Positions 1 to 57,345 of a stretch of 64,000 nt of DNA are shown in pieces. The stretch is from Alphaproteobacteria bacterium (GTDB lineage Bacteria > Pseudomonadota > Alphaproteobacteria > UBA828): contig CAXXVO010000007.1 of NCBI GenBank assembly GCA_963422645.2, positions 320,001-384,000 of the forward strand, given 5' to 3'. Below the pieces are notes generated by a model. That model searched no databases. It was not told the DNA's origin and saw only the letters and a list, made by a program, of their open reading frames with translations. The position numbers were made by a program, and so were the translations under genes. How positions within the stretch are numbered: position 1 is the stretch's first letter; each line of letters begins with the position of its first letter.

Positions 1-1776
1 AACGGATCGCAGCGCGCGCGATCGGCGGGACCGGCAGGCGCCGATGGGGCGTGCGACTTGCGATGTTCCGGCTCGGGTTCTGGCCAGTTGTGGACAGGCG
101 GGGCCGGTCGAACCGCAGTTCGCCGCCGCCGCCCGCGGTGTCCGCTTCGGCGGCGTGCTCGCCGCCCTGCCGGCCCTGCTGAAGGAAGGTCTTCTCTCCG
201 AGACCGGTCTCCTGCCATTGCTGCCGAAGGGCTATTACGGCTTGCCTACGATCCTGCTCTTCCTGGCCTTCATGACCTTGGCGCGGGTGCGCAACCCCGA
301 GAGCCTGCGCTACCAGGCGCCGGGCGAATGGGGCGCCATTCTCGGCCTCGATCGCTGCCCCGAGGTCAAGACGCTGCGCCGCAAGATCGCTCTCATCGCC
401 GACGACGAGGCCGGCGTGCGGGCGTGGCAGCTCGCCCTTGCCAGGCGCTGGCAGGCGCCGACGAGCCGGAGCTCTGGGCGACGCTGGCCATCGACGGGCA
501 CGTCAAGGTCTACTCCGGCCGCAAGGGGCGCTTGCCCAAGCACTTCGTCTCGCGCGAGAAGCTGTGCCTGCCGGCGAGCGCCAGCTACTGGATCAACGCT
601 CTGGGCGGCAAGCCGCTGCTCTGTCTGCACAAGCCGCTGGACCCGAAGATGGTCGCGGCCATCGAAGCCGACGTGGTGCCGGCGCTGCAGGAGCTTGGGA
701 TCGTTGGCGCCGGGGCGCCGGACCTGACCGCCGAGCATCCCGGCCAGCCGGCGCTCACCCTGGTCTTCGACCGCGAGGGCTGGAGCCCGGATCTGTTCCG
801 CCGGCTGGCGAGGCGCGGCGTCGCCTGCCTGACCTGGCACAAGAACTTCAGGGGCGAGGACTGGCCGGCCGAGGACTTCGGCGCGATGACCGTTCCCATT
901 CACGGACCGGCGGCGGACGGCAGCGCCACCATGCGGCTGGCTGAGAAGCCGGTGACGTTGCCGAACGGCTTCAGGGTGCGCCAGATCCGCCGCCTGCTCG
1001 ACAACGGCCGTCAGGTGCCGCTGATCACCACCGATCCGCACAAGCCGATGGCTGAGGTTGCGGGCGCCATGTTCTCGCGCTGGTCGCAGGAGAACTTCTT
1101 CAAGTACATGCGTGACGAGTTCAATCTCGACGCCCTGCCGACCCACGAGCTCGAGCCTCTCGATCCCGCCGCCATGGTCGTCAACCCGCTGCGGCGGGCC
1201 TATGACAAGGCAATCCATCGCCTCGACCGCCAGCTTGGCCGCCTGCGCAACCGCATCGCCGACACGGCCCGGAAGAAGCAGCCGACGGCGGAACTCAGGA
1301 GGGAAGTCAGGGACCTCCAGGATGTCCGCGACATCGTCAGGGCCAGCCGCAGGGAGACGCCCAAGCACTGCCGGGCCGGCGACCTCGACGAAGCCGAGCA
1401 GCTCGATGCCTTGCCCGCGCGCGAGCGCCTCCTCCTCGACGTCATCCGGATGATCGCCTACCGCGCCGAAACCCGCATGATGCTTCCCGTCATGCAGGCG
1501 CAGGGCCACAAGCCCCATCCCCGGAAACTGCTTCAAGCGCTGCTCACCGCCGATGCCGACATCCTGCCGGATCCTGGCAATGGCCTCCTGCGGGTCCACA
1601 TTCTTGGCCTCGCAAACGACGCCTGCGACCGTTGGATCGATGCGGTTCTGAGCGACCTGAACGCCACCGAAACGGTCTTCCCCGGCACCCGTCTGCGCAT
1701 AGTCTACGACATCGACGGGGCCTCGGAATCCGCGCGGCTCGTGTCACCTAAAATCAGCAGAGGTCAGGAAGTCTGA
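1..1776 (+). mobile_element. ISx copy 1 (5' part outside window), unclassified DDE insertion sequence
   Basis: Identical to the 3' part of 1780-4294. Ends in the IR GAGGTCAGGAAGTCTGA (1760-1776), whose TGA is the transposase stop. Confidence 0.93.
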
Positions 1777-1902
1777 ACATCAGACTTCCTGACCTCGTGA
1801 TGCTGGCTGTTCTGGGCAGCGTGCCGGGAACTCCTTGAATTCTGATACATTTCGGTTGTTTCAGGCGGTTTTTCGCTGGGTGTCGCGCCCGAGGTCTGAT
1901 AT

Positions 1903-1908
1903 TATAAT
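1903..1908 (+). promoter_or_regulatory. Putative -10 box (TATAAT) of the ISx transposase
   Basis: Consensus TATAAT in an AT-rich patch 26 bp before the ATG at 1935. Present in every copy that has its left end. No convincing -35. Confidence 0.45.
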
Positions 1909-1934
1909 TTGATACCAATTGCACGGTCTCAACC

Positions 1935-4294
1935 ATGCCCAGTACCCTCCCAATGTGCCCTCCAGAGGCGGTCTCGATCGGCAACAGCTGCTTCGCCGTC
2001 CTGATCTCGGACGACACCTTCACCTACTTTTCCAACCTCATTCCCTTTGACAGCCACGCCGCCGATGACCGCACGGCCATGCTCTTGCGGATCGGCCGCC
2101 TCGCGGCGATCAGCGCGGTCTCGCCGCAGGAACTGGCTGACGCTTTCGCTGTCTCGCGCGCGACGGTGCAGCGCGCACGACGGCGCTACCTGGCCGAGGG
2201 CGAAGCGGGGTTCATGAAGCCCCGGCGCGGTCGCGGGCCGTCGGTGTTCACTCCGGAGTTGGCGGAGAAGGCGACGGCGTTGCTGGCATCGGGCCTGAGC
2301 GGCTCTGCGGCGGCCCGGGTTCTCGGCGTGTCAGCGCCATCGGTCAACAAGTGGCGCCGTCAGGGACTGATCGGCAACACGGAGGCGGATGGGGAGCCCG
2401 GACGCTCAGCGCTGGCTGCGCCGCCTGACGCGGGTGCGGCTCCTGAAGGCCGTGTCGATGAAGAGAGTACCGGTGCCCCGGGGCCGGAGACGGCGCCGGG
2501 GCTGGAAGCGCAGCCGCAAACGGATCGCAGCGCGCGCGATCGGCGGGACCGGCAGGCGCCGATGGGGCGTGCGACTTGCGATGTTCCGGCTCGGGTTCTG
2601 GCCAGTTGTGGACAGGCGGGGCCGGTCGAACCGCAGTTCGCCGCCGCCGCCCGCGGTGTCCGCTTCGGCGGCGTGCTCGCCGCCCTGCCGGCCCTGCTGA
2701 AGGAAGGTCTTCTCTCCGAGACCGGTCTCCTGCCATTGCTGCCGAAGGGCTATTACGGCTTGCCTACGATCCTGCTCTTCCTGGCCTTCATGACCTTGGC
2801 GCGGGTGCGCAACCCCGAGAGCCTGCGCTACCAGGCGCCGGGCGAATGGGGCGCCATTCTCGGCCTCGATCGCTGCCCCGAGGTCAAGACGCTGCGCCGC
2901 AAGATCGCTCTCATCGCCGACGACGAGGCCGGCGTGCGGGCGTGGCAGCTCGCCCTTGCCAGGCGCTGGCAGGCGCCGACGAGCCGGAGCTCTGGGCGAC
3001 GCTGGCCATCGACGGGCACGTCAAGGTCTACTCCGGCCGCAAGGGGCGCTTGCCCAAGCACTTCGTCTCGCGCGAGAAGCTGTGCCTGCCGGCGAGCGCC
3101 AGCTACTGGATCAACGCTCTGGGCGGCAAGCCGCTGCTCTGTCTGCACAAGCCGCTGGACCCGAAGATGGTCGCGGCCATCGAAGCCGACGTGGTGCCGG
3201 CGCTGCAGGAGCTTGGGATCGTTGGCGCCGGGGCGCCGGACCTGACCGCCGAGCATCCCGGCCAGCCGGCGCTCACCCTGGTCTTCGACCGCGAGGGCTG
3301 GAGCCCGGATCTGTTCCGCCGGCTGGCGAGGCGCGGCGTCGCCTGCCTGACCTGGCACAAGAACTTCAGGGGCGAGGACTGGCCGGCCGAGGACTTCGGC
3401 GCGATGACCGTTCCCATTCACGGACCGGCGGCGGACGGCAGCGCCACCATGCGGCTGGCTGAGAAGCCGGTGACGTTGCCGAACGGCTTCAGGGTGCGCC
3501 AGATCCGCCGCCTGCTCGACAACGGCCGTCAGGTGCCGCTGATCACCACCGATCCGCACAAGCCGATGGCTGAGGTTGCGGGCGCCATGTTCTCGCGCTG
3601 GTCGCAGGAGAACTTCTTCAAGTACATGCGTGACGAGTTCAATCTCGACGCCCTGCCGACCCACGAGCTCGAGCCTCTCGATCCCGCCGCCATGGTCGTC
3701 AACCCGCTGCGGCGGGCCTATGACAAGGCAATCCATCGCCTCGACCGCCAGCTTGGCCGCCTGCGCAACCGCATCGCCGACACGGCCCGGAAGAAGCAGC
3801 CGACGGCGGAACTCAGGAGGGAAGTCAGGGACCTCCAGGATGTCCGCGACATCGTCAGGGCCAGCCGCAGGGAGACGCCCAAGCACTGCCGGGCCGGCGA
3901 CCTCGACGAAGCCGAGCAGCTCGATGCCTTGCCCGCGCGCGAGCGCCTCCTCCTCGACGTCATCCGGATGATCGCCTACCGCGCCGAAACCCGCATGATG
4001 CTTCCCGTCATGCAGGCGCAGGGCCACAAGCCCCATCCCCGGAAACTGCTTCAAGCGCTGCTCACCGCCGATGCCGACATCCTGCCGGATCCTGGCAATG
4101 GCCTCCTGCGGGTCCACATTCTTGGCCTCGCAAACGACGCCTGCGACCGTTGGATCGATGCGGTTCTGAGCGACCTGAACGCCACCGAAACGGTCTTCCC
4201 CGGCACCCGTCTGCGCATAGTCTACGACATCGACGGGGCCTCGGAATCCGCGCGGCTCGTGTCACCTAAAATCAGCAGAGGTCAGGAAGTCTGA
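1935..4294 (+). CDS. ISx transposase split into two frames by a -1 shift near 2970 (about 786 aa if fused)
   Basis: Frame A has two HTH-like segments and GLDRCPEVKTLRRK. Frame B has IDGHVKVYSG, VFDREG and RWSQENFFK (candidate D-D-E). The frames join at ...RRWQ / ADEPELWATL.... Confidence 0.85.
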
Positions 4295-22195: not shown

Positions 22196-24710
22196 TCAGA
22201 CTTCCTGACCTCTGCTGATTTTAGGTGACACGAGCCGCGCGGATTCCGAGGCCCCGTCGATGTCATAGACTATGCGCAGACGGGTGCCGGGGAAGACCGT
22301 TTCGGTGGCGTTCAGGTCGCTCAGAACCGCATCGATCCAACGGTCGCAGGCGTCGTTTGCGAGGCCAAGAATGTGGACCCGCAGGAGGCCATTGCCAGGA
22401 TCCGGCAGGATGTCGGCATCGGCGGTGAGCAGCGCTTGAAGCAGTTTCCGGGGATGGGGCTTGTGGCCCTGCGCCTGCATGACGGGAAGCATCATGCGGG
22501 TTTCGGCGCGGTAGGCGATCATCCGGATGACGTCGAGGAGGAGGCGCTCGCGCGCGGGCAAGGCATCGAGCTGCTCGGCTTCGTCGAGGTCGCCGGCCCG
22601 GCAGTGCTTGGGCGTCTCCCTGCGGCTGGCCCTGACGATGTCGCGGACATCCTGGAGGTCCCTGACTTCCCTCCTGAGTTCCGCCGTCGGCTGCTTCTTC
22701 CGGGCCGTGTCGGCGATGCGGTTGCGCAGGCGGCCAAGCTGGCGGTCGAGGCGATGGATTGCCTTGTCATAGGCCCGCCGCAGCGGGTTGACGACCATGG
22801 CGGCGGGATCGAGAGGCTCGAGCTCGTGGGTCGGCAGGGCGTCGAGATTGAACTCGTCACGCATGTACTTGAAGAAGTTCTCCTGCGACCAGCGCGAGAA
22901 CATGGCGCCCGCAACCTCAGCCATCGGCTTGTGCGGATCGGTGGTGATCAGCGGCACCTGACGGCCGTTGTCGAGCAGGCGGCGGATCTGGCGCACCCTG
23001 AAGCCGTTCGGCAACGTCACCGGCTTCTCAGCCAGCCGCATGGTGGCGCTGCCGTCCGCCGCCGGTCCGTGAATGGGAACGGTCATCGCGCCGAAGTCCT
23101 CGGCCGGCCAGTCCTCGCCCCTGAAGTTCTTGTGCCAGGTCAGGCAGGCGACGCCGCGCCTCGCCAGCCGGCGGAACAGATCCGGGCTCCAGCCCTCGCG
23201 GTCGAAGACCAGGGTGAGCGCCGGCTGGCCGGGATGCTCGGCGGTCAGGTCCGGCGCCCCGGCGCCAACGATCCCAAGCTCCTGCAGCGCCGGCACCACG
23301 TCGGCTTCGATGGCCGCGACCATCTTCGGGTCCAGCGGCTTGTGCAGACAGAGCAGCGGCTTGCCGCCCAGAGCGTTGATCCAGTAGCTGGCGCTCGCCG
23401 GCAGGCACAGCTTCTCGCGCGAGACGAAGTGCTTGGGCAAGCGCCCCTTGCGGCCGGAGTAGACCTTGACGTGCCCGTCGATGGCCAGCGTCGCCCAGAG
23501 CTCCGGCTCGTCGGCGCCTGCCAGCGCCTGGCAAGGGCGAGCTGCCACGCCCGCACGCCGGCCTCGTCGTCGGCGATGAGAGCGATCTTGCGGCGCAGCG
23601 TCTTGACCTCGGGGCAGCGATCGAGGCCGAGAATGGCGCCCCATTCGCCCGGCGCCTGGTAGCGCAGGCTCTCGGGGTTGCGCACCCGCGCCAAGGTCAT
23701 GAAGGCCAGGAAGAGCAGGATCGTAGGCAAGCCGTAATAGCCCTTCGGCAGCAATGGCAGGAGACCGGTCTCGGAGAGAAGACCTTCCTTCAGCAGGGCC
23801 GGCAGGGCGGCGAGCACGCCGCCGAAGCGGACACCGCGGGCGGCGGCGGCGAACTGCGGTTCGACCGGCCCCGCCTGTCCACAACTGGCCAGAACCCGAG
23901 CCGGAACATCGCAAGTCGCACGCCCCATCGGCGCCTGCCGGTCCCGCCGATCGCGCGCGCTGCGATCCGTTTGCGGCTGCGCTTCCAGCCCCGGCGCCGT
24001 CTCCGGCCCCGGGGCACCGGTACTCTCTTCATCGACACGGCCTTCAGGAGCCGCACCCGCGTCAGGCGGCGCAGCCAGCGCTGAGCGTCCGGGCTCCCCA
24101 TCCGCCTCCGTGTTGCCGATCAGTCCCTGACGGCGCCACTTGTTGACCGATGGCGCTGACACGCCGAGAACCCGGGCCGCCGCAGAGCCGCTCAGGCCCG
24201 ATGCCAGCAACGCCGTCGCCTTCTCCGCCAACTCCGGAGTGAACACCGACGGCCCGCGACCGCGCCGGGGCTTCATGAACCCCGCTTCGCCCTCGGCCAG
24301 GTAGCGCCGTCGTGCGCGCTGCACCGTCGCGCGCGAGACAGCGAAAGCGTCAGCCAGTTCCTGCGGCGAGACCGCGCTGATCGCCGCGAGGCGGCCGATC
24401 CGCAAGAGCATGGCCGTGCGGTCATCGGCGGCGTGGCTGTCAAAGGGAATGAGGTTGGAAAAGTAGGTGAAGGTGTCGTCCGAGATCAGGACGGCGAAGC
24501 AGCTGTTGCCGATCGAGACCGCCTCTGGAGGGCACATTGGGAGGGTACTGGGCATGGTTGAGACCGTGCAATTGGTATCAAATTATACTATCAGACCTCG
24601 GGCGCGACACCCAGCGAAAAACCGCCTGAAACAACCGAAATGTATCAGAATTCAAGGAGTTCCCGGCACGCTGCCCAGAACAGCCAGCATCACGAGGTCA
24701 GGAAGTCTGA
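22196..24710 (-). mobile_element. ISx copy 3, complete, inverted orientation
   Basis: Same IRs and 2,515-bp length. Two visible SNPs versus the other copies (near 22265 and 24588). Same frameshift. Confidence 0.95.
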
Positions 24711-26238
24711 GTATAGGGATCAGCTGCATCGGTTCCGGGTGCGCCAGGATTTGCAGGATGTTCCAGCCTTGCTTTCGAGCGGTGACGATGACGCTGCGCA
24801 TTCCGGCGAAGTTGCAGGCGCCTTGCAGGGAGCGGAAGCCGCCTGAGATCTTCTCATGCACTTTGTTCATACGGATGTCACGCTCCGCCTCGTTATTCGT
24901 GAACGGCGTGCGCAGGTCGGTGAGGAAGCGCAGGCAGCCCTCCTTATGCTTTTGAAGGCGGCGCGCGAGGTTGTGGCCGATGCGGCGTTTCTTTCGCCCT
25001 CGCTTTGCGATCTGGAGCGGCGGTTGGGCCTCATGGAAGGCGATGGCTTCTTCGAGGATACGGTCCCATGCCCTTGAGATGCGGGCCACCAGGGAGGCGG
25101 GGACTTGACGGTCTTTCTCACGGGCGAAGCGGGCGGCCCTGCGCGCGCGCTGAAGCAGGCGGTGCATGCTCGCCGCCCATTCCTCCTTCTCGATGTCGAT
25201 CAGGGCCTGGAGTTCGCGCAGGTGATGTGCGTTGCAGGCGCCGTGGCGGACGCCCTTGATGGTGAAGTAGGGGGCGAAGTCGTCGTGGACGAGGATGCCT
25301 TTCAGGTTCTTTTCGACATCGCCGCGTCCCTCGCCGATGCGCAGGACGGTGAGCAACGGGGTGCACAGCACATGGAGCCAGCGGGTACGGGCGGCGATAC
25401 GCAGGCCGGTCTCGTCGAGGTGCTTGACCGGCGCCTGCGTGCGGATCAGATCGGCGACATGGTCGAGGAAGCCCTCGAAGCGCTGCGCTGTGCGCCGGCC
25501 CATGGCGGCGATCGTGGCAGTGGAGATGGACACCGCGAAGATGTCGCTCATGAGTTCGGCCAGACGCTTCTCGGGCACGAACTGGGCGTACAGCAGGTAA
25601 CTCACCCAAGCGGTGATGCGAGGGCCGTACTGGACCGGGGCGGTGACGCCCGGCGGGAAGGCGGCTCGTGTCAGCGTGCCGCATGCGCCGCAGAGGCAGC
25701 GATGGGCGCGGTGTTCGGTGACCTCGAGAGGCTGCGGCTCGGGTACGTCGAAGACCTGCCGACAGGCGGGCGCGCCTTGCCGGTCGGCGTCCGAGAGCTC
25801 GACGCCACAGCCGGAACAGGTGGAGGGGTGGTGATCGACGACACGGTCCGGGCTGTCGCTCCGCGCGAGGGTGGTTCCCTTGTGGCCGGGCTGGCCGCCA
25901 CTGGGCCCGCCGGACTTTCCGCGCTGGCTTTGGGTGCGCCTCTGGGCTCCGCTTTTCTTCTTGAGCCCGTCGCTGGCGGGGGGCTTGCTGCTTGTGGTGC
26001 TGTTGAGGGCCGCGCTGCGCTCGAGTTCGGCGATGCGCTCGCGCAGGGCCGCGTTCTCCTGCTCGAGTGCGGCATTTTCCCGGGCGAGCGCGGTGGCTGA
26101 TCGCAGCAGCCCCTGCCCCCATTCCCGGACGGCAACGACGACAGTGGTTGCGAGGGATGATGGCTCGAGAAGCTCCTTCAGGCAGCAGAAGGCCTCGTTA
26201 CGGGCGGCGAGGTCTTCGTGCCAGTGCGACACCGTCAC
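24711..26238 (-). CDS. IS66 family transposase (last codons replaced by ISx sequence)
   Basis: NSTTSSKPPASD, GGQPGHKG, zinc finger, HLDETG, CNAHHLREL and FTNNEAERDIR. GTG start overlaps the MTase TGA. Confidence 0.92.
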
Positions 26239-26900
26239 GTGTCTTCGGCCTCGACGGCCATCATGGCGGCGAGCACGGCGAGGCGTTCGCCCGGCGGCAA
26301 GGCCTGGTAGCGCCGGCCCCAGTTGGCTGCCTTGCGCTTGATGCGCTGGCGGTCGGTGAAGTTCCGGCCTGCGTGGCTGGCCCAATGCATCCGGTCGGGG
26401 GCGTAGTTGAACCAGACGACCTCGGTTCGCACCAGACCCTGGGTCGTGACCTGCAGCGCCAGCCGGCGCCATCCCGCCAGCACCTCGTCATAGAGCGCCG
26501 ACGGATGGCCCGAGATCATGACCTGGCAGGGCAGAGCCTTGAGCAGCGCGAGAAGCGCGACGTGGCCGGCCTCCTCGTACTCGAAGCGGTAGCGCTGCGC
26601 CGAGCGGCGGGTCGCGTGCAGATAGGGCGGATCGCTGTAAACCAGCTCCGGGCCCAGGAACGGGAACGAGGCCAGGAAGTCATGGGCACAGCCGTGAACC
26701 AGATCGACCGGGTAGTCGCAGACGAAGGCCTCGAGCGCCTGCGCATCGCGGTCGATGCCGATCGAACGCACGGCCGGCGGCTTGCGCTTCATCAGCGCCC
26801 CGCCCCCAAGGTGGCTTTCGATGTAGACGGAGTGCGGCGGCATCAGCGCAATCAGCGCTTGGCACAGACCTGCTGTCGCCTTCGAGCCGAAATACCCCAT
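26235..26900 (-). CDS. DNA adenine methyltransferase (D12/Dam-like, minimal)
   Basis: YFGSK, YIESHLGGGA (SAM binding) and YSDPPY (catalytic) motifs. Confidence 0.9.
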   Translation of the reverse strand: MGYFGSKATAGLCQALIALMPPHSVYIESHLGGGALMKRKPPAVRSIGIDRDAQALEAFVCDYPVDLVHGCAHDFLASFPFLGPELVYSDPPYLHATRRSAQRYRFEYEEAGHVALLALLKALPCQVMISGHPSALYDEVLAGWRRLALQVTTQGLVRTEVVWFNYAPDRMHWASHAGRNFTDRQRIKRKAANWGRRYQALPPGERLAVLAAMMAVEAEDT

Positions 26901-27187
26901 GGACCGCTCCCGTCACGCGAGAGAGCAGTCCATAGTCCCGCAACTCTATGAGGTCAAGAACCAATCGCGGTGGCAGAACCAGACCGCGGCCGCCGCCATA
27001 ATCACCGTCCTCAACTCAGGATTGGGGTACCTGGGTAGTTACAAAACAACTTGAGAGTCCCCCTTTACTCCGATACCGACCCTTTCGTGATTGGTGATCT
27101 CTTGGATAGAGATCGCGGTTGCGCAATCGCCAATCTGGTACCGCCCGTTTCGTGCGATTGCTATGGGAAGGGTCATCACGAATCTCC

Positions 27188-27801: not shown

Positions 27802-28165
27802 ATGACGCAGAAGGCACCCGGACGCTCCCACCGCACAGGCATGACGGTCATGGAGCTGTTGCGGAAGTTCCCCGACGATGCCACTGCTGAGACGTGGTTC
27901 GAGGCCCAGCGCTGGCCCGAAGGCCGGTTCTGCCCCAACTGCGGCTCCACCAACACGGTCGTCGTCACGAGCCGGAAGCCCATGCCCTACCGCTGCCGGG
28001 ACTGCCGCCATCACTTCTCGGTGCGCAAGGGCACGGTCATGCAGTCCAGCAAGCTCGGTCTCCAGAAATGGGCCATCGCGCTCTACATGATGACCACGGG
28101 CATCAAGGGCACGTCGAGCATGAAGCTCTATCGCGAGGTCGGCATCCGGCAGGCCACCGCGTGGT
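27802..28165 (+). pseudogene. IS1595 transposase, N-terminal half
   Basis: FPDD...RWP, CPNCG...CRDC zinc ribbon, GIKGTSSMKL...QATAW. Continues as FLMQRIRE at 36719. Confidence 0.92.
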
Positions 28166-28171
28166 TGTAGA

Positions 28172-28311
28172 CGGACGAAAGTCGTTGTGAATCGGGTCAA
28201 GGGGTGGAATCAGGCGGAATCGGGCGGAAGGTGGCGGAATCTCAAGGGGATGCGCGGCGGCACGGTGGCGGTGCGGCGGCTGGCGTGCGGACGGAAGTCT
28301 TTGCGAATCGG
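28172..28311. repeat. Left-end sites L1 and L2 with a phased spacer
   Basis: CGGACGAAAGTCGTTGTGAATCGG (28172-28195) and CGGACGGAAGTCTTTGCGAATCGG (28288-28311). Four GGYGGAA units at an exact 10-bp period (28201-28240). Confidence 0.8.
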
Positions 28312-28533
28312 GCCGTGCAGAGGCCGTGAATTGTCAATCGGCTTTCAATACTGACCCCCGATCGGCGTGCAAAATTGACCCCCCTGAGTGGCACGGCGGA
28401 GGTTGTCCCGGTAGCCAATAGGGGGGACCCGCGCGGCTTCGTGTGGCGCCCTGCGCTACGCGGAGCGAAGCCGCGTGGGGGGTCCCTGTTGGCCCACCGG
28501 GGCAACCGGGCCGCAAGGGAGGCCGGCGGCGGG

Positions 28534-29262
28534 TCAGGAGCGGTTCTTGAAGCGCCAGCTCTCGTTGCCGGTCTCGATGATCTCGCAATGATGGGTGAGG
28601 CGATCGAGCAGCGCTGTGGTCATCTTGGGGTCGCCGAAGACGGATGGCCATTCGCCGAAGGCGAGGTTTGTGGTGATGACGATCGAGGTGCGCTCGTAGA
28701 GCCGGCTCATCAGATGGAAGAGCAGCTGCCCACCGGCCTGGGCGAAGGGCAGGTAGCCGAGCTCGTCGAGGATGACGAAGTCGCGGCGGACGAGCTGGTC
28801 TGCAGTGCGGCCCTGGCGTCCGGCGCGAAGCTCGGCCTCGAGGAGGTTGACCAGGTCGACGACGTTGTAGCACCGGCCGCGCGCGCCCTTGCGGATGCAG
28901 GACCGCGCGATGGCGACGGCGAGATGGGTCTTGCCGGTACCGGTGCCGCCGACCAGCACGATGTTGCGTTTGCCCTCGAGGAAGCCGCCGCCGGCGAGCT
29001 CCTGGATCAGGGGCTCGTTGACCGGCGAGGCGGCGAAGTCGAAGTCGGCCAGCTCCTTGACCGTCGGCAGCTTGGCGGAGGCCATCTGGTACTTGATCGA
29101 GCGGGCCCTCTTGTCGGCGATCTCGACCTGCAGCAGCGTACCGATGATCTGTTGCACCGGATGGCGGCGCTTGAGCCCGTCGGCAAGGATGTCGTCGTAA
29201 GCGGCGCGCATACCTGCGAGCTTCAGCTGGGTCATCATCTCCAGCACATCATGACGCTCCAT
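28534..29262 (-). CDS. istB: IS21 helper ATPase
   Basis: GGTGTGKTH Walker A, ILDELGY Walker B and ALLDRLTHH. Confidence 0.96.
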
Positions 29263-30763
29263 GACCGGCCTCCCTCAGGCTGTCGTAGCGCTGACAGTCG
29301 GCTACCGGCTTGTGGCGAAGCTGCAGGCCCTCGGGCGTCGGGATGATTGCCGGCGGTGCCGGCTGGCGCTGCCGGGCGAGGATGTTGAGCACCACGTCGG
29401 CGCTGCAGGCACCGCAGTCGAGCGTCTCGGCACAGGCCGCCTCAACCGCCTCCAGTCCGTCCTCCAGCACCGCCGCGAGCACCTTGACGAACTGCCGGTC
29501 GCCGTCGTCGTGGCCCGCGAGCCGGGTTCGCAGGCGGCCGAGCGCGTTGGGCAACTGCCAGTCCTTGAAGGGCGCGCCATTGCGTAGCGCGCCGGGCTTC
29601 CGCGTCAGGATCGGCACGTAATGCCACGGATCGTAGACGAACCGGCCGCGCCCGAAGCTGCGGGGGTGCTCGGCAACGGTCTCGCCGTCCTGGCGGATGA
29701 CGATCCGATCGGCATAGGCCCGCACGTCCACCGGCCGGCCGACGGCGCGGGCCGCGACGCTGTACTGGTTGTTGTCGAAGCGCACCAGACAGGTCTTCGA
29801 GACCGACACCTCGCTGGCATGGAAGCCGTCGAAGGGGCCGCGATACGCCATCAGGAAGGGCTGCTCCTCCTCGAACACCTGCCACACCGTCTTGCCCGGG
29901 ATTGTCGGATGCGGATGCTTCTTGGCGTCCTCGATGCACCGATCCATCAGCCACTCGTTGATCTCGGCGTAGGAGCGGCCCCGCGGGATGGGCACGAACA
30001 GGCGGCCGCGAAGGTCACCCACCTGCTTCTCGACCTGCCCCTTCTCCCAGCCAGCCCCTGGCGTGCACGCCACAGGCTCCACCAGATGGTGCGAGCACAG
30101 CTCCTGGAAGCGGCGGTTGTAGTCCCGCTTCTTGCCCACGAAGATCGTGCTCACCGCCGTCTTCATGTTGTCGTAGATGCCCCGCCGGCAGACCCCGCCG
30201 AAGAAGCGGAAGGCACGCTCGTGCGCCTCGAAGACCATCTCCTGGCTCTCGCGGGGAAAGATCTGGACCAGATACATCCGGCTGTGGCACAGCCGCATGT
30301 GCGCCGCCTTCACCCTGGTCGTCGCGCCCGACAGACGCGCGTACTCGTGGCTCCAGTCGAACTGGTAGGCCTCGCCGGGATCGAAGATCAGCGGCACATA
30401 GGCCTGCGCCGGCGACAACAGCCGCCACCGGCGCCGCCAGGCCCTGGCATAGCGGCGAACCGCGTCATAGCCGCCCTTGTAGCCCAGCGACACAAGGTCT
30501 TCATGAATCCGCAGAAGAGACAGCCGATCCTTGCGTGCCTTCTTCTCGTTGGCCTTCAGCTGGCGCTCAAGCTCCTCCACCCACAGCCCAAGCTTCGGCA
30601 TCGGCTGGATCTTGCGCTCGTAGCTGTGCGAGGTCGCATCGCCCCGCACCACCTTGCGTATCGTGTTCTTGGAAACCCTCAAATCCCGGGCGAGCTTCTT
30701 GATCGGAACGCCCTTCACCAGATGATCCCGACGGATCTTCGCGATCGTTTCCACAACCAGCAT
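29249..30763 (-). CDS. istA: IS21 transposase
   Basis: [18 protein letters not shown] and GWEKGQVE (DDE). Confidence 0.96.
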
Positions 30764-30882
30764 CTCCCCCACCACCCCGTCCGTCCAAACGACGAGGTGT
30801 GTTCATGGACACAAATCCAAGGGGGTCAATTTTGGACGCCGATCACCCCCAATAGGGGGTCACTTTTCCACGCTTAACAACA

Positions 30883-31161
30883 GCCCGCGCGCGCGGCCGG
30901 CCTGGCGGCGCGCGAATCGCAGGTCGCCGCACTCGGGGGAGAGCACGCCCGGCCTCTCGCGCCCGCCGAGACGCCCCGCGAGGGCGACGGCGTGCTGATG
31001 CACGCGGCCGGGCGGCGGCGGCGCATCGGCCACCATATCGGCCTCTGGTGCCGCATCGCGGGCGAGCCCTGCGTGCTGCACTGCGCGGAGGGCGCGGGCA
31101 CGATCGTGCACCCGATCCGCGAGCTGCCGCTGCGCGGCCTCGCGCTCGAGGGGGTCTACCG

Positions 31162-31171: not shown

Positions 31172-35382
<4,211 letters not shown>

Positions 35383-35396
35383 GAGATTCGACGGCG

Positions 35397-36020
35397 GTGC
35401 CCGGCGTGAGAGACCCCCGCGAATCAACCCCGGTCGAGCCCGGAGAGGGTTCCACCCCCCCCATTCGCGTCGTCCGCGCAGCCATCGGCCCTCGAGCAAT
35501 GGCCGAGGTCGAGCGAGCCGTCAACGGGCTCGCGCTCGCGCGCCGGGGCCCCGGCGCGGACGACTGCTACGAGGCATGGCTGCCCGACGGGATGCTCCCG
35601 GCAGACTGCACCGACGCCCTGGACGCCCTCGCCCGCAACTACGCCCGCGAGGTGCTGAACGCATGCGCGGACACGCCCTCGCCCGCCGTCTGCAACTGTT
35701 ACTTCGCAGGACAGGCCTGCCTCTGGCACGTCGACCAGTACGCAGGGCGGGGAGTTCCCGACACCCTCGACCGGACCGTCTCCGCAAGCCTCATCGTCGA
35801 ACGCGCCGCAGCCGGCGGCGACATGGTCTTCCAGGACCCGGGCCGGAAACGCCGCCCCGTACGGATCGACCCGCCGCCGGGATCGCTCGTCCTCTTCCCC
35901 GCAGACTGGTGGCACAGGGTCGCACCCGCCACCGCCGGCATCCGCCGCTCGCTCGTGCGATGGTGGGCGCAGTCGAACGGAGAGAGGTTCTCGTCCCTCG
36001 CCCGGCCCGACGGAGGATGA
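35397..36020 (+). CDS. 2OG-Fe(II) oxygenase (prolyl-4-hydroxylase/PKHD-like)
   Basis: WHVD...RTVSASL...GGDMVF...PGSLVLFP..WWHRVAP...RRSLV gives the HxD...H triad plus RxS. Confidence 0.85.
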   Translation: MPGVRDPRESTPVEPGEGSTPPIRVVRAAIGPRAMAEVERAVNGLALARRGPGADDCYEAWLPDGMLPADCTDALDALARNYAREVLNACADTPSPAVCNCYFAGQACLWHVDQYAGRGVPDTLDRTVSASLIVERAAAGGDMVFQDPGRKRRPVRIDPPPGSLVLFPADWWHRVAPATAGIRRSLVRWWAQSNGERFSSLARPDGG

Positions 36021-36024
36021 CACG

Positions 36025-36545
36025 GTGATCGACATCCAGGACGCGATCCGCCGGCTCATGCCCACGGCTTCCTGCCGGGCTCCTTCCCCGGCGGCATCGA
36101 CACGATGTTCGACGAGGCGACATGGAAGGCCTACGGCTGGAACCCGATCCCCGGCCTGCCGGACTACGGCCCCGACCCGGACGCCAGCCCCAAGCCGGCA
36201 TGGGCCATGATCGCCGAAGCGGGCGAGCGCGCCGCCGCCGAAGACCTCCGGCAAGAAAGGGCGCAAGGGGTCGACCGGGAGGCAACCCGCCGCATCCGGA
36301 AGGCCTACGGGGCGAGGAGCTGGGAGCACGAGGCCAGACGGCGGCTGCGCGGCGCCGCCACCGAGGAGCAGGACGCCGAACGCGACCGCCTGCGCCGGCT
36401 CTGCCGCGCGCTCCGCAAGCGCATCGAAACCATGGACGCGGGCGCGCTCGAGCGCTTCGACGCAGCCGACGACAGACACTGGCGCCCGCCCGAAGCCGGG
36501 CCCGCCCAGCCCCCCGCGCCCGAGGCGGAGGAGAAGGCGGAATAG
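36025..36545 (+). pseudogene. Phage tail-associated protein, probably frameshifted near 36061
   Basis: VIDIQDAIRRLM joins HGFLPGSFPGGIDTMFDEATW if one C is added in ATGCCCACGG. Alternatively an intact ORF at 36105-36545. Confidence 0.5.
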
Positions 36546-36664
36546 AACCCTTGCAGGGGCCGTGCACACCGAATTCCGCGCCCCTGAACGGCCCGTGCAT
36601 GGCCGATGCAGAGGCCGTTTTTCCAGCCCGAATCAGCCCCGAAAATCAGCCTGTTTTCCAGGCC

Positions 36665-36708
36665 ATTCGCAAAGACTTCTGGCCGCGATTCGCAAAGACT
36701 TCTGGCCG
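36665..36708. repeat. Right-end sites R2 and R1
   Basis: ATTCGCAAAGACTTCTGGCCG twice at a 23-bp period. Its first 15 nt are the exact reverse complement of GAAGTCTTTGCGAAT at 28294-28308. Confidence 0.9.
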
Positions 36709-36714
36709 GCTACA

Positions 36715-37321
36715 GTGGTTCCTGATGCAGCGCATCCGCGAGGGCTTCATCGAAGGCGAGAACAAGCCTTTCCCCGGTCCGGTCGAGGCCGACGAGACGT
36801 ACATCGGGGGCAAGGAGAAGAACAAGCACGCCAACAAGAAGCTGCGTGCGGGTCGCGGTGCGGTCGGCAAGGCCGTGGTCGCAGGTGCCAAGGATCGCAC
36901 CACCAAGCGCGTTTCCGCCAAGGTAGTGCCCGACACCACCCGCCTGACCCTGAGCAACTTTGTAGCTGCCCATGCGAGCCCCGAGACCATGGTCTACACT
37001 GACGAGTCCAAGAGCTATTCAGGCCTTCCCCACCACGAGACCGTCGTCCACTCGCGCGGCGAGTATGTCAACGGCGACTGCCACACCAACGGCATCGAGA
37101 GTTTCTGGAGCCTGTTCAAGCGGGGCTATCACGGCACCTTCCACCACCTGTCCGAGAAGCACCTGGACCGCTACGTCCGGGAGTTCACGGGCCGCAACAA
37201 CATCCGCGACCTGGACACCATCGACCAGATGGCCGCGCTGGTGCGGGGTATGGTCGGCAAGCGGCTGCGCTACAGGGAGCTGATTGCAGACGACGGCCTG
37301 TCGAGCGGAGCGCGGTCGTAG
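36715..37321 (+). pseudogene. IS1595 transposase, C-terminal half
   Basis: VEADETYIGG, VYTDE, HTNGIESFWS and YVREFTGR motifs. Confidence 0.92.
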
Positions 37322-38772: not shown

Positions 38773-39797
38773 TCAGACTTCCTGACCTCTGCTGATTTTA
38801 GGTGACACGAGCCGCGCGGATTCCGAGGCCCCGTCGATGTCGTAGACTATGCGCAGACGGGTGCCGGGGAAGACCGTTTCGGTGGCGTTCAGGTCGCTCA
38901 GAACCGCATCGATCCAACGGTCGCAGGCGTCGTTTGCGAGGCCAAGAATGTGGACCCGCAGGAGGCCACAACTGGCCAGAACCCGAGCCGGAACATCGCA
39001 AGTCGCACGCCCCATCGGCGCCTGCCGGTCCCGCCGATCGCGCGCGCTGCGATCCGTTTGCGGCTGCGCTTCCAGCCCCGGCGCCGTCTCCGGCCCCGGG
39101 GCACCGGTACTCTCTTCATCGACACGGCCTTCAGGAGCCGCACCCGCGTCAGGCGGCGCAGCCAGCGCTGAGCGTCCGGGCTCCCCATCCGCCTCCGTGT
39201 TGCCGATCAGTCCCTGACGGCGCCACTTGTTGACCGATGGCGCTGACACGCCGAGAACCCGGGCCGCCGCAGAGCCGCTCAGGCCCGATGCCAGCAACGC
39301 CGTCGCCTTCTCCGCCAACTCCGGAGTGAACACCGACGGCCCGCGACCGCGCCGGGGCTTCATGAACCCCGCTTCGCCCTCGGCCAGGTAGCGCCGTCGT
39401 GCGCGCTGCACCGTCGCGCGCGAGACAGCGAAAGCGTCAGCCAGTTCCTGCGGCGAGACCGCGCTGATCGCCGCGAGGCGGCCGATCCGCAAGAGCATGG
39501 CCGTGCGGTCATCGGCGGCGTGGCTGTCAAAGGGAATGAGGTTGGAAAAGTAGGTGAAGGTGTCGTCCGAGATCAGGACGGCGAAGCAGCTGTTGCCGAT
39601 CGAGACCGCCTCTGGAGGGCACATTGGGAGGGTACTGGGCATGGTTGAGACCGTGCAATTGGTATCAAATTATAATATCAGACCTCGGGCGCGACACCCA
39701 GCGAAAAACCGCCTGAAACAACCGAAATGTATCAGAATTCAAGGAGTTCCCGGCACGCTGCCCAGAACAGCCAGCATCACGAGGTCAGGAAGTCTGA
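38773..39797 (-). mobile_element. ISx copy 4, internally deleted derivative (1,025 bp)
   Basis: Both IRs intact. 1,490 bp deleted at a 3-bp TGG microhomology (junction 38966-38968), giving the in-frame 289-aa ORF 38773-39642. Confidence 0.93.
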
Positions 39798-39800
39798 GGT

Positions 39801-42315
39801 TCAGACTTCCTGACCTCTGCTGATTTTAGGTGACACGAGCCGCGCGGATTCCGAGGCCCCGTCGATGTCGTAGACTATGCGCAGACGGGTGCCGGGGAAG
39901 ACCGTTTCGGTGGCGTTCAGGTCGCTCAGAACCGCATCGATCCAACGGTCGCAGGCGTCGTTTGCGAGGCCAAGAATGTGGACCCGCAGGAGGCCATTGC
40001 CAGGATCCGGCAGGATGTCGGCATCGGCGGTGAGCAGCGCTTGAAGCAGTTTCCGGGGATGGGGCTTGTGGCCCTGCGCCTGCATGACGGGAAGCATCAT
40101 GCGGGTTTCGGCGCGGTAGGCGATCATCCGGATGACGTCGAGGAGGAGGCGCTCGCGCGCGGGCAAGGCATCGAGCTGCTCGGCTTCGTCGAGGTCGCCG
40201 GCCCGGCAGTGCTTGGGCGTCTCCCTGCGGCTGGCCCTGACGATGTCGCGGACATCCTGGAGGTCCCTGACTTCCCTCCTGAGTTCCGCCGTCGGCTGCT
40301 TCTTCCGGGCCGTGTCGGCGATGCGGTTGCGCAGGCGGCCAAGCTGGCGGTCGAGGCGATGGATTGCCTTGTCATAGGCCCGCCGCAGCGGGTTGACGAC
40401 CATGGCGGCGGGATCGAGAGGCTCGAGCTCGTGGGTCGGCAGGGCGTCGAGATTGAACTCGTCACGCATGTACTTGAAGAAGTTCTCCTGCGACCAGCGC
40501 GAGAACATGGCGCCCGCAACCTCAGCCATCGGCTTGTGCGGATCGGTGGTGATCAGCGGCACCTGACGGCCGTTGTCGAGCAGGCGGCGGATCTGGCGCA
40601 CCCTGAAGCCGTTCGGCAACGTCACCGGCTTCTCAGCCAGCCGCATGGTGGCGCTGCCGTCCGCCGCCGGTCCGTGAATGGGAACGGTCATCGCGCCGAA
40701 GTCCTCGGCCGGCCAGTCCTCGCCCCTGAAGTTCTTGTGCCAGGTCAGGCAGGCGACGCCGCGCCTCGCCAGCCGGCGGAACAGATCCGGGCTCCAGCCC
40801 TCGCGGTCGAAGACCAGGGTGAGCGCCGGCTGGCCGGGATGCTCGGCGGTCAGGTCCGGCGCCCCGGCGCCAACGATCCCAAGCTCCTGCAGCGCCGGCA
40901 CCACGTCGGCTTCGATGGCCGCGACCATCTTCGGGTCCAGCGGCTTGTGCAGACAGAGCAGCGGCTTGCCGCCCAGAGCGTTGATCCAGTAGCTGGCGCT
41001 CGCCGGCAGGCACAGCTTCTCGCGCGAGACGAAGTGCTTGGGCAAGCGCCCCTTGCGGCCGGAGTAGACCTTGACGTGCCCGTCGATGGCCAGCGTCGCC
41101 CAGAGCTCCGGCTCGTCGGCGCCTGCCAGCGCCTGGCAAGGGCGAGCTGCCACGCCCGCACGCCGGCCTCGTCGTCGGCGATGAGAGCGATCTTGCGGCG
41201 CAGCGTCTTGACCTCGGGGCAGCGATCGAGGCCGAGAATGGCGCCCCATTCGCCCGGCGCCTGGTAGCGCAGGCTCTCGGGGTTGCGCACCCGCGCCAAG
41301 GTCATGAAGGCCAGGAAGAGCAGGATCGTAGGCAAGCCGTAATAGCCCTTCGGCAGCAATGGCAGGAGACCGGTCTCGGAGAGAAGACCTTCCTTCAGCA
41401 GGGCCGGCAGGGCGGCGAGCACGCCGCCGAAGCGGACACCGCGGGCGGCGGCGGCGAACTGCGGTTCGACCGGCCCCGCCTGTCCACAACTGGCCAGAAC
41501 CCGAGCCGGAACATCGCAAGTCGCACGCCCCATCGGCGCCTGCCGGTCCCGCCGATCGCGCGCGCTGCGATCCGTTTGCGGCTGCGCTTCCAGCCCCGGC
41601 GCCGTCTCCGGCCCCGGGGCACCGGTACTCTCTTCATCGACACGGCCTTCAGGAGCCGCACCCGCGTCAGGCGGCGCAGCCAGCGCTGAGCGTCCGGGCT
41701 CCCCATCCGCCTCCGTGTTGCCGATCAGTCCCTGACGGCGCCACTTGTTGACCGATGGCGCTGACACGCCGAGAACCCGGGCCGCCGCAGAGCCGCTCAG
41801 GCCCGATGCCAGCAACGCCGTCGCCTTCTCCGCCAACTCCGGAGTGAACACCGACGGCCCGCGACCGCGCCGGGGCTTCATGAACCCCGCTTCGCCCTCG
41901 GCCAGGTAGCGCCGTCGTGCGCGCTGCACCGTCGCGCGCGAGACAGCGAAAGCGTCAGCCAGTTCCTGCGGCGAGACCGCGCTGATCGCCGCGAGGCGGC
42001 CGATCCGCAAGAGCATGGCCGTGCGGTCATCGGCGGCGTGGCTGTCAAAGGGAATGAGGTTGGAAAAGTAGGTGAAGGTGTCGTCCGAGATCAGGACGGC
42101 GAAGCAGCTGTTGCCGATCGAGACCGCCTCTGGAGGGCACATTGGGAGGGTACTGGGCATGGTTGAGACCGTGCAATTGGTATCAAATTATAATATCAGA
42201 CCTCGGGCGCGACACCCAGCGAAAAACCGCCTGAAACAACCGAAATGTATCAGAATTCAAGGAGTTCCCGGCACGCTGCCCAGAACAGCCAGCATCACGA
42301 GGTCAGGAAGTCTGA
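39801..42315 (-). mobile_element. ISx copy 5, complete
   Basis: Same IRs, length and frameshift. Separated from copy 4 by the 3 bp GGT. Confidence 0.95.
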
Positions 42316-45580: not shown

Positions 45581-46263
45581 GTCCCTGCGAAGGGCTCCAG
45601 GTCGGCCAGGTAGGCGAGCACCCGGTCGAGCGGCTCGACGTCGCAATACTTCATGTCGAGGTCGAAGAGGTTCCACTCGATGGCGGCGGGCACGCGGTCG
45701 CCCACGCATTCACGGACGATGACGGTGCGGAAGCCCTCGCCGAGCGCGTCCTCCACCGTGTGCCTGACGCAGCTCGCCATGGTGACGCCGGTGCAGATCA
45801 ACGTATCGATACCGCCGGCGCGCAGTATTCCGCCGAGGTGGGTGCCGGCGAAGGCGCTCGGCCGCTTCTTCACGATCAGCGTGTCGACGCCTTCCTCCAG
45901 GGGCACGCGGTCGTCGATCTCGGTCGCAGGCGAGCCCAGCATCAGGTCCTCGAAGGGCTTCTTGAGAGGGAAGGCGCCCATGTCGAAGCGGCTGCAAAAC
46001 GCGGTGGTGGTGTAGATGATCGGCACCCGCCTGGCGCGGGCCGCTGCGAGCAGGCGCTGCACGCCGGGAATGATCTGATCGTCCATGTCGTCGCAGGAGA
46101 AACGATGGCCCGGCCGGGTCCAGGCGTTGGCGAGGTCGATGTTGAGGAGCGCGGGCCTCGTGCCGAAGCCCGAGCGCTGGTTCCAGCCGCGGTTCCGGTA
46201 GAGCCCGGAATCGCCGGAGAAGATGGTATCGAGCGCCTCGCGGACCTTGTCGTCCAGCGGCAT
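45577..46263 (-). CDS. Isochorismatase-family cysteine hydrolase, paralog 2
   Basis: NIDL...KKRPSAF...GVTMASCVRHT (D-K-C triad). Confidence 0.92.
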   Translation of the reverse strand: MPLDDKVREALDTIFSGDSGLYRNRGWNQRSGFGTRPALLNIDLANAWTRPGHRFSCDDMDDQIIPGVQRLLAAARARRVPIIYTTTAFCSRFDMGAFPLKKPFEDLMLGSPATEIDDRVPLEEGVDTLIVKKRPSAFAGTHLGGILRAGGIDTLICTGVTMASCVRHTVEDALGEGFRTVIVRECVGDRVPAAIEWNLFDLDMKYCDVEPLDRVLAYLADLEPFAGT

Positions 46264-46291
46264 TGCCGCCTCCCGTGGAGAGATTTCCGGC

Positions 46292-46978
46292 CTAGCGGTT
46301 GGCGAAGGGCTCCAGGTCGTCGAGGTAGGCCAGCACCCGGTCGAGCGGCTCGACGTCGCAATACTTCATGTCGATGTCGAAGAGGTTCCACTCGACCGCC
46401 GCAGGCACGCGGTCGCCCACGCATTCGCGCACCACGACGGTGCGAAAGCCCTCGCCGAGCGCGTCCTCCACCGTGTGCCTGACGCAGCCGGCCATGGTGA
46501 CGCCGGTGCAGATCAGCGTGTCAATTCCGCCGGCGCGCAGAATGCCGCCGAGGTGGGTGCCGGCGAAGGCGCTCGGCCGTTTCTTCACGATCAGCGTGTC
46601 GACGCCTTCCTCCAGCGGGATGCGGTCGTCGATCTCGCAGGCCGGCGAGCCCAGCATCAGGTCCTCGAAGGGGGTCTTGAGCGGGAAGGCCCCCATGTCG
46701 AAGCGGCTGCAGAAGGCGGTGGTGGTGTAGATGACGGGCACCTGCTTGGCCCTCGCGGCTTCGAGCAGGCGCTGCACCCCGGGAATGACCTGGTCGTCCA
46801 TGTCATTGCAGGAGAAGCGATAGCCCTGGCGGGTCCAGGCGTTGGCGAGGTCGATGTTGAGGATCGCGGGCCGCGTGCCGAAGCCCGAGCGCTGGTTCCA
46901 GCCGCGCTTCTGGTAGAGCCCGGCATCGCCGGAGAAGATCGTGTCCAGCGCCTCGCGGACCTTGTCGTCCAGCGGCAT
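46292..46978 (-). CDS. Isochorismatase-family cysteine hydrolase, paralog 1
   Basis: NIDL...KKRPSAF...GVTMAGCVRHT. I count 22 of 228 residues differing from its neighbour. Confidence 0.92.
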   Translation of the reverse strand: MPLDDKVREALDTIFSGDAGLYQKRGWNQRSGFGTRPAILNIDLANAWTRQGYRFSCNDMDDQVIPGVQRLLEAARAKQVPVIYTTTAFCSRFDMGAFPLKTPFEDLMLGSPACEIDDRIPLEEGVDTLIVKKRPSAFAGTHLGGILRAGGIDTLICTGVTMAGCVRHTVEDALGEGFRTVVVRECVGDRVPAAVEWNLFDIDMKYCDVEPLDRVLAYLDDLEPFANR

Positions 46979-57330: not shown

Positions 57331-57345
57331 ATTGAGAGATCACAT

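Follow-up and report, generated by a model that had tools for sequence, protein, structure and literature searches.

Transposition by a copy-out-paste-in route is ascribed to the insertion sequence (IS) families IS1, IS3, IS21, IS30, IS256, IS110, ISLre2 and ISL3 in the list given by Olasz et al. (2022, PMC9333248). For IS30, that paper reports that resident tips are used as targets, that the tips of distant copies can be joined and that the sequence of a targeted tip can be converted. Another lineage, ISH3, was split from IS4 as an "emerging family" (De Palmenaer et al. 2008, PMC2266710). As characterized in the sections of that paper that concern it, ISH3 has 5-bp repeats that are flanked by A and T; its catalytic motif is Y-2-R-3-E-3-R and its tips read CRGT, with elements that are 1,225-1,500 bp long and were then known from archaea only; IS4 proper is given duplications of about 9-12 bp. 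Here we examine an insertion sequence of 2,515 bp, for which ISH3 is the closest described family, in the genome of an alphaproteobacterium (GTDB lineage UBA828, assembly GCA_963422645.2). Copies of this element lie tip to tip at two places in a stretch of 64,000 nucleotides (contig CAXXVO010000007.1, positions 320,001 to 384,000 of the forward strand) that we call the window. The simplest account of these junctions, and the most likely one, is that they are an ordinary outcome of insertion in a genome crowded with such elements.

The genome is a 5.9-Mb metagenome-assembled genome in 23 contigs with an estimated contamination of 8.5%. The element occupies 4.4% of it, in 67 full-length copies and numerous fragments that between them have 120 left and 117 right tips. 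At the first junction in the window (1760-1796), a 17-bp right tip is followed by ACA and a 17-bp left tip. At the second (39781-39817), the two tips are separated by GGT on the + strand, or ACC when read in element orientation. Each arm at both junctions contains 17 perfectly complementary bases, and a terminator scan returned the corresponding hairpin of 17 pairs with a 3-base loop. The repeat period is 2,518 bp, the sum of 2,515 and 3. A BLAST search with the 2,515-bp unit identified the left partner of junction 1 as the last 1,776 bp of a copy (element positions 740-2515; window 1-1776, + strand). This copy starts outside the window at G000:C8:318203 and is broken upstream of the window by an unrelated 1,045-bp element. 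The right partner is a full 2,515-bp copy (1780-4294, + strand). The GTT-T that follows it differs from both the spacer and the left flank, GGT. At junction 2 the left partner in element orientation is a full copy (39801-42315, - strand) preceded by A-AAC. Its right partner is a 1,025-bp internal-deletion derivative (38773-39797, - strand), followed by TAT-T, that lacks element positions 833-2319 and joins positions 1-832 to 2320-2515. The window also contains a solitary full copy (22196-24710, - strand) that has two mismatches to the reference copy and is flanked by TAC and AAA with no duplication. A preliminary description of this DNA, made from the letters alone, had reported both junctions with these arms and spacers, and the sequence agrees. 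It had also called both of them head-to-tail dimers with a 3-bp spacer. The head-to-tail geometry holds, but junction 2 is not a pair of full copies, since a full copy adjoins the derivative, and the three letters are better read as the center of 5 bp (A-ACA-T and A-ACC-T) between the tips CAGAC...GTCTG.

The reading of 5 bp comes from the target rule of the element and from its relatives. Genome-wide, 34 of the 67 full copies are flanked by identical triplets, where chance would give 4.9% per copy (P = 3.7e-28 for at least 35 of 67, an order of magnitude that also holds for 34). Outside these triplets, the base at -4 is A in 89 of 89 unique left flanks and the base at +4 is T in 89 of 89 unique right flanks. 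Identical triplets also flank all four complete copies of IS-B, a related element of 2,560 bp. The tips and flanks are the same in relatives with 45-85% protein identity, whose metagenome-assembled genomes are labelled as belonging to several phyla, and the triplets of these relatives match at 17 of 25 readable loci (28 of 80 loci were inspected and three were dropped for undefined ends). One of these loci (L035) has TGGTT at both sides of the element. In a genome of the same genus (G016), a site internal to the element reads GGTCT and the remnant nested in it reads GTCTG and then GGTCT. One subfamily of relatives has G-NNN-C in place of A-NNN-T. Because these three cases place the outer A and T in the duplication and not in the element, the duplication is 5 bp, usually A-NNN-T, and the apparent 3-bp spacer is best read as one shared 5-bp copy of the target, which at junction 1 would be A-ACA-T at 1776-1780. 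The element itself is 2,513 bp long by this count. The earlier statement that no copy or dimer has a flanking target duplication is correct for the three structures inside the window and fails for the genome, where about half of the full copies have matching triplets. The preliminary description had also named cut-and-paste transposition with regular target duplications as a finding that would refute its reading, and regular duplications are present.

Two further patterns were seen in the triplets. Among about 85 half-sites in repeated host elements, four have an adjoining triplet that is one base off every unoccupied copy: GGT to GAT twice, GGT to GCT, and GTA to GTC (G000:C7:76003-76005, C10:211136-211138, C15:208184-208186 and C19:162840-162842). 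Mismatched flanking triplets differ solely in the middle base at seven of 33 copies, against 10% expected (P 0.053), a pattern that was spotted post hoc and for which we make no claim.

A pattern search of the genome for two facing tips within 12 bases found four tip-to-tip junctions among about 240 tips, and the reversed pattern, used as a control, found none. Four junctions are more than chance. The two in the window have triplets that are all unlike, GGT/ACA/GTT at junction 1 and AAC/ACC/TAT at junction 2. The third, on contig C7, is half-pristine and reads GTC[IS]GAC[IS]GAC. Its outer flanks come from different loci, one being a 73-copy repeat and the other unique DNA. Contig C6 has the fourth, which joins this element head-to-head to IS-B with the triplets GTC/ACC/TAT.

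We favor, with modest confidence, the reading that in each case the target copy bordering a resident element was entered by a second one and that recombination between copies later scrambled the outer flanks. The element inserts at A-NNN-T only and duplicates those five bases. Each insertion thus leaves an intact target at either edge, where a newcomer can enter directly beside the resident tip. A later insertion into an edge target, whether by the same element, the 1,025-bp derivative or a related element, would give tip, 5 bp, tip, and both junctions in the window probably arose in this way. The mismatched outer flanks would then stem from later recombination or deletion among about 100 near-identical copies. 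Full-length pairs in inverted, and hence palindromic, arrangement may be missing through instability. The flank rearrangements that this requires are documented. The left flank of junction 2 corresponds to an empty, A-NNN-T-like orthologous site in three genomes of the same genus, and the DNA that adjoins this site there is gone from the present genome; a deletion therefore ends at the full copy of junction 2. The outer flanks of the C7 pair are the other example. More generally, 33 of the 67 full copies also have no matching pair of triplets, and the genome is heavily rearranged at repeats. Insertion into the shared target copy accounts for the strict target and the pristine examples, for the unlike partners and the head-to-head pair, for the like geometry of an unrelated element in this genome, and for the lack of junctions in relatives with low copy number. 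No tip-to-tip junction was found in ten related genomes with far fewer copies (five of these hold 174 tips; the other five are uncounted).

The unrelated element belongs to the IS66 family (1,888 bp, Pfam PF03050) and is present in 65 full copies, 48 of which have an 8-bp duplication. Among its 316 tips there are four tip-to-tip junctions, all head-to-tail and with a spacer equal to one 8-bp duplication (G000:C9:406466-410249, C3:224183-228641, C8:517728-522540 and C8:14916-19343). It therefore resembles the present element in forming head-to-tail pairs one duplication length apart at a similar rate (4 per 316 tips versus 4 per approximately 240). It differs in having an 8-bp duplication, a looser target, two pristine pairs and one pair that apparently moved as a unit. 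The two pristine pairs have the same 8-mer at the left, middle and right; in the one on C9, the two copies differ by 2 bases, a divergence close to that between the left copy and most of the others. The remaining pair mentioned has equal outer 8-mers and a different middle, as if it had moved as a unit. The 1,045-bp element that interrupts the left copy of junction 1 has no junction among its 41 tips, which are too few to weigh much.

The transposase also bears on how the junctions are read. An intact protein of 785 aa, encoded by an in-frame copy on contig C7, has N-terminal helix-turn-helix domains and matches Pfam PF21804 (Transposase_29) over residues 220-765 with 338.8 bits (E 6e-101), above the curated gathering cut-off of 27 bits. 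The preliminary description had called the transposase poorly characterized and had asked for its Pfam classification, and the answer is this uncharacterized family, for which we found nothing relevant in the literature beyond a listing of the accession. In an alignment of 58 members, all of which match PF21804, D359 and D451 are invariant and E558 is near-invariant within F-x2-R554-x3-E558-x3-K562. The spacing of D359 and D451 is 92 residues, which we take to resemble that of Tn5. PF01609, the IS4/IS5-type domain, is weakly matched by 23 of the 58 (best E 2.1e-9), a likeness to the IS4/IS50 (Tn5) type; the transposase in the window has no match to it at E up to 1. The catalytic part of the 785-aa protein has no match among the NCBIfam insertion-sequence models. 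Sub-threshold matches to IS630, IS481, ISNCY and IS3 models all fall within residues 61-156, the helix-turn-helix part, and a sequence search of solved structures returned helix-turn-helix matches only. The family is large and widespread: a search at E up to 0.001 returned 3,811 representative proteins. It was found in one of 18 other genomes of the same genus that were searched (G016), and no relatives were found in 72,556 plasmid records.

Compared with ISH3 as described in the sections cited above (PMC2266710), this element is similar in duplicating 5 bp as A-NNN-T, with A and T as outer bases in all 89 unique flanks on each side. The motif has the same spacing, Y-2-R-3-E-3-R in ISH3 and F-x2-R-x3-E-x3-K here, with different first and last residues. 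The tips agree in the first three bases (CRG and CAG) and differ in the fourth (CRGT versus CAGA). The element differs from the ISH3 of that account in its length of about 2,515 bp, its 785-aa protein with N-terminal helix-turn-helix domains and its presence in bacteria from several phyla. No copy of the element was matched at E up to 1 by NF033541, the NCBIfam model for ISH3 (cut-off 225 bits); this model gave 33 weak matches in the genome, none of them in element copies and the best with 17.6 bits. The 5-bp duplication also sets the element apart from IS4, for which the same paper gives about 9-12 bp (PMC2266710).

Several observations weigh against insertion into a shared target copy, and most of these would be expected if the transposase made the junctions itself. 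Where both partners are copies of the same element, as at three junctions, the orientation is head-to-tail throughout. In three of the four junctions there is no match among the three flanking triplets, so that each of these needs at least two later events. At the C6 junction (G000:C6:263091-263104, locus L105), the outer 14 bp of IS-B read as the tip of the present element. Two bases differ there from the other five IS-B copies, which makes the arms of the palindrome perfect; a near-palindrome may have been corrected, or the tip may have been converted when an insertion was directed to it. There are also more junctions than expected. A position-weight target model built from 158 half-sites assigns element edges 0.46% of the total insertion propensity, and with about 150 insertions assumed it predicts 0.35-0.7 junctions, where four were seen (Poisson P 0.0005-0.006, or 0.05 with the model off two-fold). 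The model is crude in that it assigns 17% of the propensity to the element interior, yet the sole internal site used is at positions 2441-2443; because it fails on the interior, we treat the excess as a caution and not as a result. Finally, a 2,587-bp metagenome contig from a distant relative (L091) has a terminal overlap of 127 bp with the junction in mid-contig, the layout expected of a circle or a tandem array.

This last contig comes from a scan of metagenome contigs that found 11 with tip-to-tip junctions in seven distinct contexts. Five distinct elements have 5-bp spacers (AACTT twice, AAGTT, GATTC and GAATC), and a transposase match was obtained for all but one of them. Contig L096 reads AACTT[IS]AACTT[IS and is, with the C7 pair, among the pristine or half-pristine examples. 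The other two contexts are orphan pairs of facing tips with 13-16-bp arms in chromosomal contigs. One has the spacer AGACT and was seen twice (L089, L095); the other has a 6-bp spacer and was seen four times (L088, L093, L094, L097). The fetched stretches around the orphan pairs contain no other tip and no transposase.

The transposase could make such junctions by joining a right tip to a left tip, giving circles or tandem dimers as in the copy-out-paste-in pathway of IS30, IS911 and IS21, and the junctions would then be intermediates or relics fixed in the chromosome. We regard this as possible but doubtful. Beyond the points above, including the seven metagenome contexts with their self-closing contig, it would account for a spacer of exactly the duplication length and for the haplotype of the C7 pair, in which both copies carry an in-frame form found in only four of the 67 copies. 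The joining of the tips of two distant copies, as described for IS30 (PMC9333248), would explain outer flanks that come from different loci. The resemblance to copy-out-paste-in elements lies in right and left tips that abut at a duplication-length spacer in three same-element junctions, two of them in the window, and the converted IS-B tip recalls the conversion reported for end-targeting by IS30 (PMC9333248). The partners, however, are not only equal copies joined left to right. One junction is head-to-head and one pairs a full copy with a derivative, and a circle of one element cannot yield a head-to-head junction with a different element. In the treatment of IS30 by Olasz et al., end-targeting gives left-right junctions exclusively and junction constructs are unstable (PMC9333248), whereas the present genome has a head-to-head junction, and its junction words were found near single-copy depth in two samples. 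The spacer should equal one of the outer triplets and does so in only one of the four junctions. The IS66-family element, which is unrelated, has the same geometry. The PF21804 catalytic domain, with its weak PF01609 matches, lies outside the eight families listed in that paper (PMC9333248), and the transposase families of IS30 and this element are unrelated, with weak matches in the helix-turn-helix parts only.

A promoter assembled across the junction is a feature of IS911 and IS30. No + strand promoter was found across 1760-1796 in a simple scan for the sigma-70 consensus, which is crude and may not be that of the host. In the contigs of two sequencing runs, junction words have depths of 10 and 5, near those of the words joining the element to unique flanks (13.7 and about 7) and far from those inside the element (about 930-1,140 and 550-680), which argues against an abundant circle. 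These are contig depths and a rough guide, and Logan contigs drop rare variants. The preliminary description had proposed that the element uses circle or figure-eight intermediates or targets its own ends. Targeting of its own ends survives in the plain form of a regenerated A-NNN-T. Circles and figure-eights gain no direct support, and the unlike partners in two of four junctions, the likeness to the IS66-family element, the regular duplication, the absence of a junction promoter from the simple scan and the lack of a match to a copy-out-paste-in family beyond weak helix-turn-helix matches speak against them. A more specific proposal is that PF21804 transposases actively guide new insertions to the tips of resident elements, or link tips into reactive junctions, in a pathway like copy-out-paste-in. 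We consider this unlikely. If it were so, the excess of junctions, the self-closing contig, the converted IS-B tip, the orphan tip pairs and the occasional non-templated base in a triplet would be its footprints.

Host replication or recombination is an improbable source of the junctions. Misalignment of sister strands at short direct repeats could duplicate the element plus one repeat, or a free circle could recombine into a resident copy. Either route would be expected to give head-to-tail pairs only, with a spacer equal to the duplication, and to affect any element family, as is seen. The rare haplotype shared by the C7 pair and the fully matching 8-mers of two IS66-family pairs also fit. 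The head-to-head pair with IS-B is impossible by this route, and the pair of a full copy and a derivative is not made by it alone. The divergence between the pristine C9 copies of the IS66-family element, being about as large as that to most other copies, argues against this route, and the outer triplets should be equal after integration of a circle but are unequal at all three same-element junctions. That the junctions are artefacts of assembling a repeat of about 100 copies is very improbable. The fragmentation and estimated contamination of the assembly and the small indels between copies would be compatible with an artefact. The spacers, however, differ between junctions, which the preliminary description had already held against a collapsed repeat, and we agree. 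The same geometry is found in independent metagenome assemblies, and the exact sequence of junction 1 is present in 55-bp Logan contigs of two further runs, X19 and X21, among the records listed. With 26 letters to the left and right of the spacer, these contigs fall short of the 31 letters required for bridging and so show the junction words and not a long molecule that spans the pair. A further junction contig (X1) has one differing letter. The runs that contain the stretch beside the junction are labelled as sponge metagenomes, with one coded organism in addition.

The transposase gene is split in the copies in the window. In the right copy of junction 1, a first frame (1935-3245, + strand) encodes the helix-turn-helix domains and the start of PF21804, and a second (2576-4294, + strand) encodes the remainder of PF21804 with the DDE residues. 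The stop codon of the second frame is the final three bases of the right tip. The break lies at a variable indel site at about 2972-2975 (element positions 1193-1196) that has six alleles among the 67 full copies. The two main alleles, in 34 and 22 copies, are out of frame, and a single open frame of about 790 codons is found in 10 of the 67. The variation may reflect a hot spot of mutation, act as an on/off switch or be a sequencing artefact.

The element is also a target inside its own sequence. An internal site, TA-GTC-TA, lies 72 bp from the right tip (4220-4222, + strand, in the right copy of junction 1, with a counterpart at 1702-1704 in the left copy). Elsewhere in the genome this site has been entered repeatedly by other copies of the element: nine left tips there share its orientation and two are reversed. 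In some cases there are tandem 76-bp tail fragments (for example, G000:C8:174448-179555), which look like leftovers of nested insertion followed by recombination, and G016 has this remnant too. The 1,025-bp derivative is present in seven complete copies genome-wide, some of them at host sites that are also used by full copies. Because four of the seven have their own duplication, the derivative behaves as a non-autonomous element that is mobilized by the transposase of other copies.

Other arrangements of tips and repeats were observed. Two full copies lie 736 bp apart with the same inner flanks three times in the genome (G000:C5:566168-571935, C21:19856-25623 and C8:866587-872348), and these pairs may be a composite unit or a duplicated segment. 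Two other genomes (G004 and G005, via loci L020 and L023) have many pairs of family tips 250-540 bp apart, a spacing that suggests miniature non-autonomous derivatives. The window is crowded with other mobile elements: segments 24711-27047, 28162-30909, 34785-36716 and 56006-57332 each occur from 7 to about 95 times in the genome. Several host sites of the element fall within these other repeats, and one such site is filled in about half of its 35 copies. Two 300-bp direct repeats with 93% identity lie 715 bp apart at 45587-46601.

Ends that abut at a short spacer commonly count as a mark of transposition through circles, and the present case advises caution in reading them so. Here they most likely follow from a target that lies wholly within the duplicated bases, in a genome with about 100 copies of one element, and an unrelated element there has them as well. 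These observations also provide a first working description of the widespread PF21804 family, with tips CAGAC...GTCTG, a 5-bp A-NNN-T duplication, a hot spot for self-insertion and a mobilized deletion derivative. If PF21804 transposases did direct insertion to tips or join them, tip-joining transposition would be extended to a new lineage of enzymes; the family is related to IS4/ISH3-type enzymes, a superfamily with no established pathway of the copy-out-paste-in kind.

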